Positions 33,101 through 53,312 of a stretch of 64,000 bases of DNA are shown here, one piece after another. Each line of letters starts with the position of its first letter. Positions within the stretch are counted from its first letter, which is position 1. The translations under genes were made by a program, and so were the position numbers. This stretch comes from Escherichia phage vB_EcoM_IME537, in the sequence record NC_054921.1. One strand, written 5' to 3'. The notes beneath the pieces are model-generated. The model ran no database searches and was not told the origin of the DNA. It saw only the letters and a program-made list of their open reading frames with translations.

Positions 33101-33820
33101 TTAGGATTCTTCTAAATGTCTTTTCTGAAAAGTTGATACCATACTACGATACGGTTCATTTGGATATCCGTGTTTTATAGCTTCCTTTGTAAATTTTCTC
33201 CATCCATATTTAGTTTCTTTCCAAAGCTCGAATAATTCATCTTCATACTGCCATATAGTTAAATGAGAACGCTTTGCAGCTTTAATTCCATTAATATGCT
33301 TTTCTTTTACTGCAGGATTGCTTAGTTTCTTTTTAATAATATTACTAACTTTTCTAACAAAAACTGGGTCCTTATATCGTTGCGAAGTTTTTATTGAAGT
33401 GTTTAATTTAGCTTCCGGCGTGGATGTAACCTCTTTCATCTTTTTCTTCATATGCTGTATATGATTAGGATTTTTCCATAAATTTATAGAATGCTTTTTG
33501 CATTTTATCCTAGTTTCATCTGCAACCTTTCCTCCTTCACCCCCGTATGACAGGTTAACACAGTTTTTTCCATATTTCAATTTACCTGCCATGATATATA
33601 ATATTTCAGCTTGTACCATTTTATCATAATTATCAAAAACTTCTAAAACCGTTTTTGATAATATGTGGTCATTTGACACTTTTACACGTTCTATATAATT
33701 TCCACTACCAACATACGAATCATTGATGTTATTAGTTATATGTCGACCATAATAGTATTTCTTAATACCTGTCTTTAAATTTAATATTTCAGTTTTATAG
33801 ATAGTAAAATATTTTTTCAT
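33101..33820 (-). CDS. free-standing Seg-like GIY-YIG homing endonuclease
   Basis: 239 aa; N-terminal GIY-YIG-like module (YFTIYKTEI...KKYYYGRH...YVGSG) resembling segB in this window; basic C-terminal DNA-binding region. Confidence 0.6.
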   Translation of the reverse strand: MKKYFTIYKTEILNLKTGIKKYYYGRHITNNINDSYVGSGNYIERVKVSNDHILSKTVLEVFDNYDKMVQAEILYIMAGKLKYGKNCVNLSYGGEGGKVADETRIKCKKHSINLWKNPNHIQHMKKKMKEVTSTPEAKLNTSIKTSQRYKDPVFVRKVSNIIKKKLSNPAVKEKHINGIKAAKRSHLTIWQYEDELFELWKETKYGWRKFTKEAIKHGYPNEPYRSMVSTFQKRHLEES

Positions 33821-34797
33821 TTTAATAATACCGTTTCAGCAATTTCTTCCCAACCGTTTTTATCGGTCATAATAAAGTCAGCAAGATAAAGAGCAGTACG
33901 CAGTGAAACATTGCGTAAACGATTAACATTGACTTTCATCCATGATAATGCTTTATAAGTTTCTTCATCAGAAAGACCGCGCTTTTGCATCATGTCGGTT
34001 GAAAGAATAACATCTTCAACCCTGACCATAATTTCTTCATTAGTGTGAACACCCAAATCCAAATAAACTGAGCGGGATACTAATGCTTGTAAATGTGGAG
34101 CAAGTTTAGTACCACGGTCTAATTCGCGGTCAATGTCAACGTTTGTGATAAAAACAATCGTTCCTTTAAATTCAAACTCACGCTCAATGCCTTTTTCTTC
34201 TAAGTAAGAAGATGCAGTGCTCCAGCAGACTTTACGGGTCTCTCCAGTGTCCAGAGCGGCTTTTAGAAGATTAAGAATGTCCATATCAGAGAAAACATCC
34301 ACATCATCAATCAAAAGGACAGAATTCTCTTCACGATTATTCCAAAGTTGTTCATAAAGACCGATACCGGAGATTTTACCGTTAATGCTTTTATATTCAA
34401 TGTATCCATTATCATTTGCTTTATTCAAAGCTTTATCTAAAGAATACGTTTTACCAATACCTGCTGCACCAGAGATAATTAATGAACGAATGTTTCCGTT
34501 AATAATACCATTCGTCATCATTCCCATAACATTAAATCTTTTATTAATGCGGGTTTTCATATCTTCATATGATTCTTTAACTTCTTCAACTTTTACACCA
34601 TCATATGAAATGTCTGATTTGTAAACCCAAACACCGCGACGTTTACCGTCAATTTCAACAAAAACTTTACCATCTCCTTGTGCATCTACCGGAGCATTAT
34701 CTGGGAACCATTCACCTAAGAGCTCAAAAGTTCCAGAGATTTCTTTACCGAAGTAGATACCCTTATTGATAGTTACAGTTTTCATTTTATTCTCCAA
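33817..34797 (-). CDS. P-loop ATPase (AAA+-like)
   Basis: 326 aa; Walker A GAAGIGKT, Walker B VLLIDDVDVF. Confidence 0.55.
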   Translation of the reverse strand: MENKMKTVTINKGIYFGKEISGTFELLGEWFPDNAPVDAQGDGKVFVEIDGKRRGVWVYKSDISYDGVKVEEVKESYEDMKTRINKRFNVMGMMTNGIINGNIRSLIISGAAGIGKTYSLDKALNKANDNGYIEYKSINGKISGIGLYEQLWNNREENSVLLIDDVDVFSDMDILNLLKAALDTGETRKVCWSTASSYLEEKGIEREFEFKGTIVFITNVDIDRELDRGTKLAPHLQALVSRSVYLDLGVHTNEEIMVRVEDVILSTDMMQKRGLSDEETYKALSWMKVNVNRLRNVSLRTALYLADFIMTDKNGWEEIAETVLLK

Positions 34798-34818
34798 TTT
34801 TACATTTGTTTTGATAGG

Positions 34819-34852
34819 GTAATAGTATCACACTACTACCCTGCTGTAAACA
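34819..34852 (-). promoter_or_regulatory. T4-type early promoter cassette (family B)
   Basis: Minus strand GTTTACagcagggtagtagtgtgaTACTAT. Confidence 0.5.
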
Positions 34853-34854
34853 AT

Positions 34855-35118
34855 TTATTTTAATGTTCGCCAAATTTTTACTGCTTCGCGACGAGATACT
34901 TCTACAGCTCCAAGTTCTACAGCTTTTTGGCGTCGCCGAGCGTGTAAGTCATAATGTTTAATGCGTTTATCTTGAAACCAAGAACGTTTCATTCCTATTG
35001 CTTCTGCCATTTCGTGAAGCTCTTCAATATCTCCATCAGTGAACATATGACAATTTTTAGTTGGATGACCGCGAAGTTTCCATCCATGATTCATTAAAAC
35101 ATCTACGTAAACTGTCAT
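34855..35118 (-). CDS. DUF4031-like small protein
   Basis: 87 aa; MTVYVD...CHMF.D...EELH.MA..IG..R.WFQ...HYDL pattern as I recall for DUF4031. Confidence 0.45.
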   Translation of the reverse strand: MTVYVDVLMNHGWKLRGHPTKNCHMFTDGDIEELHEMAEAIGMKRSWFQDKRIKHYDLHARRRQKAVELGAVEVSRREAVKIWRTLK

Positions 35119-35264
35119 TGATTCTTCTCCAAATAAGTTTCGATAATTTTCTGAGCGAGATAAACTGCATTATCTTCAGTTGCATCTTCTAAGAAACTTT
35201 CAAAACACTCTGAAATTTCTTCTGTGTCAATCAACTTTTTTACTTCAATTGGTGTAATTTTCAT
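35115..35264 (-). CDS. hypothetical small protein
   Basis: Track ORF 35115..35333; start moved to MKITPIEVKK downstream of the promoter -10 element. Confidence 0.3.
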   Translation of the reverse strand: MKITPIEVKKLIDTEEISECFESFLEDATEDNAVYLAQKIIETYLEKNQ

Positions 35265-35298
35265 TTTGTTTTTCCGTTTAAGTGTTTGTTTTGATAGT

Positions 35299-35323
35299 TG
35301 TATAGTACCATAAGCCCGAAGGC
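35299..35323 (-). promoter_or_regulatory. promoter -10-like element fused to a UUCG hairpin (partial cassette)
   Basis: gttgtatagtacca family-A -10 segment followed by agcccgaaggct hairpin; no GTTTAC -35. Confidence 0.3.
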
Positions 35324-35329
35324 TCCCTA

Positions 35330-36343
35330 TCATTTATAATAACTTCGGTGGTTTTCAAGATAGACCTTCTCAAGGAAGTCATCCCAGAAACTCATGTCTA
35401 CTGTTTTAGGCATACCGTTCTTAGAAGCTTCAGTAGATGCTGCTTCTACTTGATCGACCACATCTTCCAAAAACTCTTGAACCGTTTTAAATGGATGTTT
35501 ACCCAACTTCACGTCAAGAATAAATGGAGCGTCTTGAAGTGGATAAACCAAGTCACCAGTTTTGTAAATTTCCAATAGTTGAAGTCCACCACGACAAGCA
35601 TGGCTCAGAGCTTTCCAGTCAATACCTTCGTTGGCTTCGGCCTTACGGGCACGTTCACCATATTCAGCATCTAATTTGTTCAGTGACTGCTTAAGCTCAA
35701 TAAGAGAAAGCGTTGTCTGATATTTACGACCCAACACAGTGTAGAACATTTGCGGGCCTGTTTTCTCATAATTATGGAACACCCATTCACAGAACTCGTT
35801 TTCTGGAAGACGATGCTTAATATCTTCAACTTTAGTGCGACGAAGTCTATCAGGGATTCCTTCTTGATAGTCGACCCACTGGTCAGGGATTTGATTAACT
35901 ACTTTCAATACATCACGTAATGCGGCCAAACGAGAACCCTTGACACCGTATTTAGAAGCTTGCTTACGGACATATCCTAAATAGGATTTCATGTTAGTCG
36001 TATAAAAACGAGAACGGTTGTCTTGAATAAACTTCCACACATCAGGCAAATCAGATTTAACCACTAGCTCAGGTGGAGTGTGAAGCATATCTAATGCTAC
36101 AGTTTCACCATCTGCTGCTAATTTAAAGAAATACTTAAGACTGTATAGTTCATGGTCAATATCATCTTTAGTGTTTTTAGATGATGTGTTGTTAGTGTTT
36201 TTACTCATGTGCTCTTTAACGTTTCCAATAAGAATATCACGAGCAGGAGGAACAAAGATTTCTTTAAAATCTACATCAGATTCTGGTGTAGAAGTTCCAT
36301 AAAGATGACTACCAAAATAACTTTTCATTACTGTTTTCATCAT
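35330..36343 (-). CDS. putative nucleotidyltransferase (Pol-beta superfamily-like)
   Basis: 337 aa; N-terminal GS...G.S..SDVDF motif (YFGSHLYGTSTPESDVDFKEIF) followed by a helical domain. Confidence 0.45.
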   Translation of the reverse strand: MMKTVMKSYFGSHLYGTSTPESDVDFKEIFVPPARDILIGNVKEHMSKNTNNTSSKNTKDDIDHELYSLKYFFKLAADGETVALDMLHTPPELVVKSDLPDVWKFIQDNRSRFYTTNMKSYLGYVRKQASKYGVKGSRLAALRDVLKVVNQIPDQWVDYQEGIPDRLRRTKVEDIKHRLPENEFCEWVFHNYEKTGPQMFYTVLGRKYQTTLSLIELKQSLNKLDAEYGERARKAEANEGIDWKALSHACRGGLQLLEIYKTGDLVYPLQDAPFILDVKLGKHPFKTVQEFLEDVVDQVEAASTEASKNGMPKTVDMSFWDDFLEKVYLENHRSYYK

Positions 36344-36801
36344 TCAGCCTTATATTCAATAACAGGACACACTTTAGCTTTACGAGCTTTTAAAAATTCA
36401 ACGATAATCGATTTCTTGGGTTGAATAGGAGGTAAACCTTTATACGCCCTATCAATGTTTTCTACGTGTAAAGCATAATCCTTTTTCCATTTATAATCTT
36501 TATATTTTTCACGCAAATGTGCAGGAATAACAAATGAACCGATAATAAGTAAAACAACAAAAAGCGCAAGTATAAATGCCGATGGAAGAAGAATCCATAA
36601 ACTACCGAAAATAAGCCAACGTTGTAGGCTTTCTGCACAAATAATTGTTAGCCCTACGAGTATAGCACATCCAAAAATAGAAACGAAAAATGTAGGAATG
36701 GCAATAGACCAAAAATATGCGCATAGTGTCTTAGGTCGTTGCCATTCATCGTTAAACAATTTGAATAATTTATAGTGCCAAGAGTTTTCATTAATAATCA
36801 T
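36340..36801 (-). CDS. predicted multi-pass membrane protein
   Basis: 153 aa with three or four hydrophobic segments. Confidence 0.45.
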   Translation of the reverse strand: MIINENSWHYKLFKLFNDEWQRPKTLCAYFWSIAIPTFFVSIFGCAILVGLTIICAESLQRWLIFGSLWILLPSAFILALFVVLLIIGSFVIPAHLREKYKDYKWKKDYALHVENIDRAYKGLPPIQPKKSIIVEFLKARKAKVCPVIEYKAE

Positions 36802-36803
36802 AA

Positions 36804-37325
36804 TTATCCTTTCATTGAAGGTGTAACAGTTGTTAAATACTTAATCATAGCCTCAGCTTCTGATTTTGATAATGAAATTTCTCCATTGTTTTGACGAATA
36901 GAAATAAAATCCGGATGACGGTCACCACCAGCTTTTAAAACACACATATAAGTATCAGTTTCATCTTCAATATTTGAAATGATTGAAGCAGTTCCACATG
37001 AATGCGGTTTTTGATAAATCAATACAGCTTTTCTTCCGCCATTTGACTGTTCATAAACTTTTAATACATCAAACAAATCACTTCTTTTATCAATAGCTAA
37101 AATGTTATTTTCATCTTCAATGTTAAATCCTTCGGATACTTCATAAAGTGTCACCCATAAATCGCCAATATCAATAACAGCGTTCACTTTTCCATGACTT
37201 TCAAGAGCATGACAAATTTTCTTGATTTCGTCATAACTCATTTTAATAATATCATCTCCTTGACTAAGAAAGATGTCATTTTTAAATTCAACACGAATTA
37301 AACCGCTTCCACTTGAAATAAACAT
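36804..37325 (-). CDS. hypothetical protein
   Basis: 173 aa ORF. Confidence 0.4.
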   Translation of the reverse strand: MFISSGSGLIRVEFKNDIFLSQGDDIIKMSYDEIKKICHALESHGKVNAVIDIGDLWVTLYEVSEGFNIEDENNILAIDKRSDLFDVLKVYEQSNGGRKAVLIYQKPHSCGTASIISNIEDETDTYMCVLKAGGDRHPDFISIRQNNGEISLSKSEAEAMIKYLTTVTPSMKG

Positions 37326-39248: not shown

Positions 39249-39282
39249 TGTATAGTATCACAGCTCAAATGGAAAGTAAACC
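39249..39282 (-). promoter_or_regulatory. T4-type early promoter
   Basis: Minus strand GTTTACtttccatttgagctgtgaTACTAT. Confidence 0.45.
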
Positions 39283-51955: not shown

Positions 51956-52031
51956 TGGTCGAGGCAGTAGGGATCGAACCTACGACCTAGGACTTAGAAG
52001 GTCCTTGCTCTTCCTTCTGAGCTATGCCCCG
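51956..52031 (-). tRNA. tRNA-Arg (anticodon UCU)
   Basis: Cloverleaf by hand: acceptor CGGGGCA/TGCCTCG, anticodon loop CTTCTAA, T-arm GGTTCGATCC. Confidence 0.8.
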
Positions 52032-52034
52032 TAA

Positions 52035-52700
52035 TTAAAATTTCATTTTTCGACCTTTAAACCATCCTTCTGGAATTGGGTCAGTTTTCTTAATACGTTT
52101 AGAAACTTTTTCATCTAATGAATGAATCCACATCATACCAAATTGGGAATTCTTTTCTCCTTTCTGGTGATTATTTTTAGCGTGAATTTCTTTCATTTTA
52201 TTAATAGTTTCAGGAGTATGATGCTTATTTAAAAATCTGCTATTATTTAAAAATTTTTCCTTGTATTCAGGAGTTGACCACAAACGTTTAAATACATTTG
52301 AACCAATTTTACGATATTTTTCTTGAAGTAAAATATCATTTTCAAAACGTGATTTAAACGATTTAGCTCCTTTTAAGCTAGCATCTTTCTTCTGGTTTAG
52401 CATCCCAGGAATATTTATATGGTCCCATCCACCTTCACCGCCAAGTTTTAAATTATACACATCTGGTCTATTTAAAAACTCTTCTGTGACAATATTTTTC
52501 TCGGCTTCAAGCATAGATTCTTTATCATCAAAATACTCTAATATTTCTTTAGAGAAATTTTCTATACCATACTTGTCTTGGGCTCTTTTTAATAATTTAC
52601 CAGAACCCATATATCCATCATCTAAATTTTCGGTAGAATGCACACCAATATAAATTTTATTATTAATTTTATTTGTTATTTTATAAGTGTAATGGAACAT
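52035..52700 (-). CDS. segB: SegB GIY-YIG homing endonuclease within the tRNA cluster
   Basis: 221 aa; GIY-YIG module (YTYKITNKINNKIYIGVH...GYMGSG); located between tRNA-Arg and tRNA-Ile as in T4. Confidence 0.8.
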   Translation of the reverse strand: MFHYTYKITNKINNKIYIGVHSTENLDDGYMGSGKLLKRAQDKYGIENFSKEILEYFDDKESMLEAEKNIVTEEFLNRPDVYNLKLGGEGGWDHINIPGMLNQKKDASLKGAKSFKSRFENDILLQEKYRKIGSNVFKRLWSTPEYKEKFLNNSRFLNKHHTPETINKMKEIHAKNNHQKGEKNSQFGMMWIHSLDEKVSKRIKKTDPIPEGWFKGRKMKF

Positions 52701-52741
52701 AAATATCTCCTATTTCTAAGAGTATTTATGTTCCCAAAATA

Positions 52742-52813
52742 TGGCCCTGGGTGGAATTGAACCACCATCTGGCGATTATGAGTCGCTTGCTTGAACCTTC
52801 CAGCTACAGGGCC
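52742..52813 (-). tRNA. tRNA-Ile (anticodon CAU)
   Basis: Acceptor GGCCCTG/CAGGGCC; anticodon loop CTCATAA. Confidence 0.8.
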
Positions 52814-52819
52814 TTGATA

Positions 52820-52892
52820 TGCTGATTGACGGAATCGAACCGCCGACATCCTCATTACAAGTGAGGTGCTCTACCTACTGAGCTAAATCAGC
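52820..52892 (-). tRNA. tRNA-Thr (anticodon UGU)
   Basis: Acceptor GCTGATT/AATCAGC; anticodon loop CTTGTAA. Confidence 0.8.
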
Positions 52893-52899
52893 GAAATTA

Positions 52900-52986
52900 C
52901 GGAGGCGATAGGATTTGAACCTATGAGTCGCCGGAGCGACTGCCGGTTTTCAAGACCGGTGCATTAAACCACTCTGCCACGCCTCC
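52900..52986 (-). tRNA. tRNA-Ser (anticodon UGA), long variable arm
   Basis: Acceptor GGAGGCG/CGCCTCC; anticodon loop CTTGAAA; 87 nt. Confidence 0.8.
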
Positions 52987-52988
52987 AG

Positions 52989-53062
52989 TCTCCGCGGCAG
53001 GATTTGAACCTGCGACATTCTGCTCCCAAAGCAGACGCTCTACCAAACTGAGCTACACGGAG
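52989..53062 (-). tRNA. tRNA-Pro (anticodon UGG)
   Basis: Acceptor CTCCGTG/CGCGGAG; anticodon loop TTTGGGA. Confidence 0.8.
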
Positions 53063-53074
53063 TAAATTAAATTT

Positions 53075-53146
<72 letters not shown>

Positions 53147-53151
53147 AAATT

Positions 53152-53238
53152 TGGTGCGAGAAGTGGGACTCGAACCCACAAGGAAATCATTCCGCAGCAT
53201 TTTAAGTGCTGTGCCTTTACCAATTTGGCCATTCTCGC
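53152..53238 (-). tRNA. tRNA-Leu (anticodon UAA), long variable arm
   Basis: Acceptor GCGAGAA/TTCTCGC; anticodon loop CTTAAAA; 87 nt. Confidence 0.8.
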
Positions 53239-53239
53239 G

Positions 53240-53312
53240 CTGGGAATAAAGGACTCGAACCTTTGCATCCTGGAATCAAAATCCAGTGCCTTACCAACTT
53301 GGCTAATTCCCA
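53240..53312 (-). tRNA. tRNA-Gln (anticodon UUG)
   Basis: Acceptor TGGGAAT/ATTCCCA; anticodon loop TTTTGAT. Confidence 0.8.

Follow-up and report, generated by a model that had tools for sequence, protein, structure and literature searches.

Nucleotidyltransferases (NTases) of the RlaP family take their name from an association with RNA ligases, and the two characterised examples, PfRlaP and PaRlaP from Pseudomonas, add one or two nucleoside monophosphates (NMPs) to the 3'-OH of RNA with a preference for damaged RNA; the study which described them proposes RlaPs as an antidote to nucleotide-excising ribotoxins such as RloC, and names T4 NrdC.11 as an RlaP of its cluster 5 (PMC12776372, a 2025 preprint). 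In the PfRlaP crystal structure a C-terminal helical domain and the NTase domain form an RNA-binding cleft, and amongst the repair NTases of jumbo phages RlaP is the commonest (PMC7824862). The hyperplastic regions of T4-type genomes are themselves subject to modular shuffling mediated by promoter/stem-loop elements, or PeSLs (PMC2839356, PMC4122927). Here we compare these systems with a locus in a 64,000-nucleotide stretch of the Escherichia phage vB_EcoM_IME537 genome (NC_054921.1, the whole of which stretch we refer to as the window), in which nrdC.11 is found next to nrdC.10, encoding an AAA+ ATPase, and a small cassette encoding a DUF4031 protein and a 49-residue protein, orf49. We consider it probable that these are three genetically independent units of the nrdC–tk hyperplastic region and not a single functional module, as a first-pass annotation of the same DNA had supposed.

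Over 4.4 kb the region shares 97% identity with Tequatrovirus genomes (Yersinia phage ZN18 and NIC06P2, for example), and it is collinear with the nrdC–tk region of RB32, T6, AR1 and RB14; the window comes from a Tequatrovirus, and the two large genes are annotated as nrdC.10 and nrdC.11 in RB32, AR1 and RB14. The three adjacent minus-strand open reading frames (ORFs) that had been reported are real, with the recorded ends for 326, 87 and 337 aa, as is a 153-aa membrane-protein ORF at 36340–36801. The lengths of 87 and 337 aa hold, while the first becomes 322 aa and orf49 had been overlooked. The four genes with which we are concerned are:

33817–34785, minus strand: nrdC.10, AAA+ ATPase, 322 aa, starting at the ATG at 34785
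34855–35118, minus strand: DUF4031 (PF13223) protein, 87 aa, second gene of the cassette, from a profile match, a predicted structure and conserved residues
35115–35264, minus strand: orf49, acidic protein of probably 49 aa, first gene of the cassette, from a phrog_6888 match
35330–36343, minus strand: nrdC.11, RlaP-family (PF10127) Pol-beta NTase, 337 aa, from Pfam and phrog_388 matches

The 326-aa version of nrdC.10 begins at a TTG which overlaps the Shine–Dalgarno sequence GGAG, so we take the ATG at 34785 as the true start, and the gene is annotated at 322 aa in both ZN18 and RB32. The orf49 gene lies within a 72-aa ORF (35115–35333) between the DUF4031 gene and nrdC.11, but since the phrog_6888 match is limited to residues 24–72 of this ORF, translation probably begins at the ATG at 35264. 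The longer version extends into hairpin and −10 remnants described below, and is probably not translated from 35333.

Distribution of nrdC.10, nrdC.11 and the DUF4031 gene

The distribution of these genes was compared in 80 IMG/VR loci containing nrdC.10 (30–77% identity) and 44 loci containing NrdC.11 (57–96% identity), both with neighbours sought within 8 kb, as well as in 80 viral DUF4031 loci and 50,697 deposited phage genomes. NrdC.11 was found within 8 kb of nrdC.10 in three of the 80 nrdC.10 loci, all of them from close T-even relatives, and nrdC.10 was absent from within 8 kb of NrdC.11 in 12 of the 44 NrdC.11 loci. The deposited genomes gave 1,310 records for nrdC.10, 1,516 for NrdC.11 and 325 for DUF4031, and the first two genes each occur without the other, as the counts differ between host genera (149 nrdC.10 vs 286 NrdC.11 records from Klebsiella phages, and 121 vs 59 from Vibrio phages). 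Where both are present they need not be close: the homologs in Vibrio phage D525 are at 116 kb and 185 kb, 68 kb apart, where the NTase is flanked by rIIB and dda, and the ATPase by nrdAB and topoisomerase II. Of the six genomes compared by Nolan et al. (2006), three had a conserved nrdC.10, and nrdC.11 orthologs were listed for all six. Both are long-known T4-family genes that are inherited independently of one another.

This distribution is difficult to reconcile with a functional pairing in which NrdC.10 would be the ATP-dependent partner of NrdC.11 (by unfolding damaged tRNA or ribosome-bound RNA, for instance, or by presenting it), with the cassette as an unrelated passenger. The order of the two genes in T-even-type loci, which we return to below, could be a sign of such a pairing, but 77 of the 80 nrdC.10 loci have no NrdC.11 nearby, a terminator hairpin and a separate promoter stand between the two genes in T4-type genomes, and the characterised Pseudomonas RlaPs work without an ATPase. 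Taken with the D525 arrangement, the host-genus counts and the Nolan et al. data, we regard the pairing as unlikely.

The DUF4031 gene has a different distribution again. Seventy of the 80 viral loci belong to unrelated, non-T4 phages with heterogeneous neighbours, including methylases, recombinases, terminase or portal genes and DNA-modification genes, amongst which we found no conserved neighbour and no RNA-repair gene beside DUF4031; nrdC.10, NrdC.11 or orf49 are nearby in the ten T4-like loci only. The first-pass annotation had proposed, as a hypothesis, that the ATPase, DUF4031 protein and NTase act together in RNA repair, nucleic-acid modification or counter-defence. In its favour, the genes adjoin on one strand, the NTase belongs to a family associated with RNA repair (PMC12776372), and the T4-like DUF4031 genes are always within about 2 kb of nrdC.10. 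Nevertheless, RB32, T6, AR1 and most other close relatives keep the two large genes without DUF4031, the record counts differ several-fold, neither partner is present in the 70 non-T4 loci, and the cassette is found downstream of nrdC.10 in half of the T4-like cases and has a different history from its flanks (see the next section). A search of the five locus proteins against PADLOC-DB gave no matches at E ≤ 0.01, and an NCBIfam search of the locus proteins also returned nothing. The three genes do not co-occur beyond this setting, with the NrdC.11–nrdC.10 synteny confined to close T-even relatives, and we judge a three-component module to be extremely improbable; the suspicion of RNA repair survives for the NTase but not for the three genes jointly.

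A narrower tie, between the cassette and NrdC.10 alone, would make the DUF4031 protein a regulator or substrate-modifying enzyme, for example. In all ten T4-like loci nrdC.10 is no more than 5 kb away, and the cassette is directly upstream of it or 1.7–2 kb downstream, as this would predict. Against it, approximately three quarters of the nrdC.10 records lack DUF4031, which is abundant in unrelated phages without nrdC.10, and the surroundings of nrdC.10 are a hyperplastic, insertion-tolerant region with many small ORFs (PMC4122927). We therefore think this tie very unlikely.

The nrdC.11/nrdC.10 junction and the orf49–DUF4031 cassette

Downstream of nrdC.11, RB32-type genomes carry a perfect hairpin (GGGAGCC-TTCG-GGCTCCC) and a T-run, after which comes a T4 early promoter (GTTTACA-N17-TACTAT) for nrdC.10, and because these elements lie between them we consider nrdC.11 and nrdC.10 to be separate transcription units. 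The corresponding junction in the window, which includes the cassette, has the following features:

34822–34851, minus strand: T4-type early promoter GTTTACA-N17-TACTAT driving nrdC.10, the sole full early promoter in the locus
34779–34830, strand not assigned: right copy of an imperfect direct repeat, with the −10 element, leader and ATGAAA
35258–35310, strand not assigned: left copy of the imperfect direct repeat, with the extended −10 TGGTACTAT kept and the −35 lost
35313–35327, minus strand: remnant of the UUCG-tetraloop terminator hairpin after nrdC.11, with the 3' arm cut to GGCT and the T-run gone

The T4-type early-promoter motif used in this analysis (GTTTAC-N17-19-TAYWAT) matches the window at 16 places, every one of them on the minus strand, where 0.22 are expected, and the next copy upstream of the nrdC.10 promoter is at 39252–39281. 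There is a 4-nt overlap with the preceding gene at each of the nrdC.11, orf49 and DUF4031 ORFs. It had been thought that every gene here was fronted by its own early promoter, but this fails because there is one motif copy in the locus and because of these overlaps; nrdC.10 alone has such a promoter, and the claim is wrong for the other three of the four genes.

The direct repeats, which are 480 bp apart and bracket the cassette, include two matching segments (D1, 26 nt at 81% identity, and D2, 22 nt at 77%), and in the direction of transcription the order is a −10 and leader remnant, orf49, DUF4031, the complete early promoter and nrdC.10. RB32, T6 and AR1 are without the cassette (with 88% coverage in the region search) though they keep nrdC.10 and nrdC.11, and in T4-like contigs orf49–DUF4031 was found directly upstream of nrdC.10 at five loci and 1.7–2 kb downstream of it at another five. 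The cassette DNA is 88–92% identical to that of PG7-like phages, compared to 67–73% for the adjoining intergenic region, nrdC.10 and nrdC.11, and this sharp step in identity between the cassette and its flanks indicates a recent lateral transfer of the cassette.

A wider comparison of this junction across 32 loci showed that the gap between nrdC.11 and nrdC.10 varies from 111 to 1,673 bp and includes 23 ORF clusters and up to three early promoters. The UUCG hairpin is present in all four minimal junctions (111–118 bp), three of which also have the motif promoter. The commonest occupant is an 84-aa hydrophobic, membrane-like ORF seen at 18 of the 32 loci (L097, L101, L104–L106, L110–L114 and others in our numbering), and further recurrent ORFs are of 62, 71, 76 and 161 aa. 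The nrdC.11/nrdC.10 junction is an insertion hot spot.

These features resemble those of PeSLs (2010; Comeau et al. 2014), in which small non-essential genes are separated by a terminator hairpin and a strong early promoter, repeats derived from promoters bound the indels, and different inserts are found at the same junction in related phages. The difference is that the left border in the window is a PeSL scar, with the hairpin truncated and the promoter reduced to its −10. As read from the DNA, the promoter at 34822–34851 is intact, the hairpin at 35313–35327 is truncated and the left promoter is represented by the −10 only.

Within the cassette, the stop codon of orf49 overlaps the start of the DUF4031 gene (ATGA), and the two form a translationally coupled cassette of 480 bp. 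The DUF4031 protein matches PF13223 over its full length (77.7 bits against a cut-off of 25.6, E = 8e-22), which agrees with the earlier domain call. In 147 family representatives, residues D6, H24, D28, H35, Q49, H55-Y56-D57 and R63 reach 97% conservation or more (99% or more for D6, H24, H55, Y56 and D57), and these family-wide residues are all present in the window protein, the predicted structure of which has a pLDDT of 92.6. This near-invariant pattern of polar residues suggests a small enzyme or ligand-binding protein. The family is large, with 7,324 representatives at 50% identity, nearly all of them single-domain; when we looked for fusion proteins, members of 170–257 aa had no second Pfam domain. 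A PDB sequence search found nothing meaningful, a Foldseek search against viral structures (BFVD) gave no matches at E ≤ 0.001, and no functional study was found in the literature on DUF4031/PF13223.

The pairing with orf49, which has a net charge of about −7, sets the T4-like proteins apart from the DUF4031 family at large; the idea that DUF4031 is generally accompanied by such an ORF upstream, small and acidic, was considered and rejected, as this is seen in the T4-likes only. Here the two genes are always together, except at L141, where an 88-aa ORF with CxxC...CEDCEEPIPEQRRKA precedes DUF4031 in place of orf49. This segment may resemble a DksA/TraR-type zinc finger.

NrdC.11 and NrdC.10 compared with their protein families

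NrdC.11 is a member of the RlaP family. It matches the Pfam RlaP model PF10127 with 43.8 bits (gathering cut-off 23, E = 3.2e-11) over residues 7–136 and profile positions 23–143 of 249, all 120 NrdC.11 homologs amongst the matches listed also have PF10127, and there is a further match to phrog_388. The protein shares 96% identity with its homolog from phage T2. Using the Pol-beta NTase signature of hG[GS], 9–13 residues and DxD, plus a third carboxylate, we found G11-S12 and D23-x-D25 in FGSHLYGTSTPESDVDF and the third acidic residue, D85, in VALDML; G11-S12, D23, D25 and D85 are invariant across the alignment of NrdC.11 homologs. The NTase and AAA+ calls of the first-pass annotation are supported in this way by the PF10127 match and, for NrdC.10, by the motif set described below. 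Its statement that no function had been characterised for these ORFs is outdated for the NTase family (PMC12776372), although literature searches for nrdC.10 and DUF4031 found no functional study.

When compared to the characterised RlaPs, NrdC.11 is alike in that its Pfam match exceeds the cut-off, it carries the GS...DxD...D signature and it is of similar size (about 340 aa). It differs in belonging to a separate sequence-similarity cluster (cluster 5, with the characterised enzymes in cluster 1a), in having a Pfam match limited to the N-terminal NTase half of the model, and in not adjoining an RNA ligase, as the ZN18 and RB32 annotations show none in the roughly 6 kb upstream or 4 kb downstream of nrdC.11. 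In T4, the genes for Pnk and the RNA ligases are in other parts of the genome. By its family membership, NrdC.11 most likely adds nucleotides to broken RNA 3' ends.

The pathway that NrdC.11 would be likely to feed is the T4 Pnk–Rnl1 repair system which counters the PrrC anticodon nuclease, as an instance of phage repair of host-inflicted tRNA breaks (PMC12776372). The classical pathway needs no nucleotide addition, whereas RlaP is proposed for nucleases which remove nucleotides, such as those of the RloC type. In the laboratory, T4 tolerates deletion of nrdC.11–mobD.3 (PMC9825161), and this is consistent with a role that is conditional and depends on the host. We note that in one T4 record (OL964745.1, 159,752 bp) the last 12% of nrdC.11 is all that remains; this looks like a genome-reduced T4 derivative, and the loss agrees with the deletability of nrdC.11–mobD.3.

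NrdC.10 (in the 322-aa numbering) consists of an N-terminal beta-rich domain of about residues 1–65 followed by the alpha/beta core and helical lid of the AAA+ fold. The motif set is complete, with Walker A at 106–113, Walker B at 160–163, the sensor-1 FITN at 212–215, an SRS arginine box at 237–239 and the sensor-2 LRxVSLRT at 290–297, and GAxGxGKT, DDVD, FITN, SRS and LRxVSLRT are invariant in 23 homologs (55–89% identity). The SRS box is like the SRC motif of clamp loaders. Scores against every Pfam AAA model are under the gathering cut-offs and a PDB sequence search found nothing meaningful; the protein belongs to phrog_1250, and the nearest solved folds are the MoxR-type NorQ/CbbQ, NtrC-type activators, and DnaA/ORC/RFC/RuvB. 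The beta-rich domain is particular to the NrdC.10 family and differs in this from known AAA+ ATPases, and as many distant homologs, including those of 350-kb jumbo coliphages (records ph0011 and Turkey3), match from about residue 63–79 onwards, we regard it as a lineage-specific addition.

NrdC.10 is a widely conserved gene of the T4 superfamily. The neighbours at the distant nrdC.10 loci include UvsW (53 loci), UvsY-like (32), UvsX/RecA-like (27) and gp32-like (15) genes, and in environmental T4-like contigs the homolog is flanked by a UvsY-like gene and uvsW, with a conserved 355-aa protein encoded next. On the strength of this neighbourhood, we tentatively suggest that NrdC.10 may be an independent ATP-driven remodeller or loader for DNA-metabolism or recombination complexes, and not a partner of the NTase. 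The gene for the 355-aa protein, directly downstream of the distant nrdC.10, was considered as a divergent RlaP and rejected, as it has no Pfam or PHROG match.

Proposed history of the locus, neighbouring genes and significance

We propose the following explanation for the locus as a set of independent units. NrdC.11 would extend the 3'-OH of cleaved and trimmed RNA, such as tRNA 5' halves nibbled by RloC-type nucleases, by one or two NMPs, after which the phage kinase–phosphatase and RNA ligase encoded elsewhere would reseal a functional tRNA. nrdC.10, expressed from its own early promoter, would supply the ATP-driven remodeller or loader for DNA-metabolism complexes. The orf49–DUF4031 genes would have been inserted between the two by recombination within a PeSL-type junction, destroying the terminator hairpin and the −35 and giving nrdC.10 a fresh early promoter, and the cassette would be exchanged laterally amongst T4-like genera.

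Several observations weigh against this explanation. nrdC.10 is downstream of nrdC.11 on the same strand in 32 of the 44 NrdC.11 loci, all T-even-type, and this conserved order could reflect function as well as shared ancestry. Similarly, the location of DUF4031 within about 2 kb of nrdC.10 in ten of ten T4-like loci may exceed the constraint imposed by a permissive region. In the case of NrdC.11, sequence and profile searches of the PDB found no meaningful relatives, the Pfam match is confined to the N-terminal 136 of 337 residues, and the suggested activity and role in T4-like phages follow from family membership.

A more ambitious reading would combine a mobile orf49–DUF4031 module that neutralises host defence with an NrdC.11 that gives resistance to nucleotide-excising nucleases (RloC). 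If this were true, the DUF4031 protein would be a small metal-dependent enzyme or ligand-binder and orf49 its translationally coupled partner or inhibitor, the pair spreading through T4-like genera by promoter/stem-loop recombination. We find this doubtful, and prefer the explanation by independent units.

The genes on either side of the locus are:

33101–33820, minus strand: seg-like homing endonuclease ORF, 239 aa (phrog_314, E = 1e-30; no Pfam match)
36340–36801, minus strand: membrane-protein ORF, 153 aa, in the mobD position (phrog_944; the RB32 record notes that it 'replaces mobD')

The membrane-protein ORF, which overlaps the start of nrdC.11 by 4 nt, is transcriptionally upstream of nrdC.11 and not downstream as had been described. 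It is preceded in turn by an ORF at 36804–37325 (minus strand) with matches to the Pfam models T4_y05I_N (E = 2e-34) and T4_y05I_C (E = 5e-23), a 'putative transcription factor'. At the other end, the seg-like ORF overlaps the nrdC.10 stop by 4 nt, and as L089 is the single locus with it at this position amongst 44 related NrdC.11 loci, we suspect a further mobile insertion; weak seg-like matches (29–31%) were also found about 4–6 kb upstream of nrdC.11 in L092 and L106. The window nrdC.10 is 99% identical to that of relatives whose nrdC.11 is 95–96% identical, and this higher identity might be the result of endonuclease-driven co-conversion. Elsewhere in the window there is a T4-type cluster of eight tRNAs at 51956–53312 (minus strand; Arg-tct, Met/Ile-cat, Thr-tgt, Ser-tga, Pro-tgg, Gly-tcc, Leu-taa and Gln-ttg), and the sign of the GC skew flips near 58 kb, where the leftward early region gives way to genes on the plus strand.

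Deposited T4-like genomes often refer to nrdC.10, nrdC.11 and other nrdC.x ORFs as 'thioredoxin', a label apparently propagated from the gene-name prefix nrdC, with 'clamp loader', 'HNH homing endonuclease' and 'transcriptional regulator FleQ' also in use. These are mis-annotations, and the mislabelling as 'thioredoxin' is found in many GenBank entries.

With a published family assignment already available for nrdC.11, the locus is largely ordinary, and the practical value of this comparison is mostly one of correction, in that the apparent ATPase–DUF–NTase 'operon' should not be taken as a defence or counter-defence module. The locus also illustrates cleanly how phage genera exchange genes by way of promoter/stem-loop elements. 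What interest is left attaches to what NrdC.10 and DUF4031 do and to a test of the RlaP hypothesis in T4, since if NrdC.11 acts as an RlaP, the classical tRNA repair of T4 would extend to nucleases that remove nucleotides.

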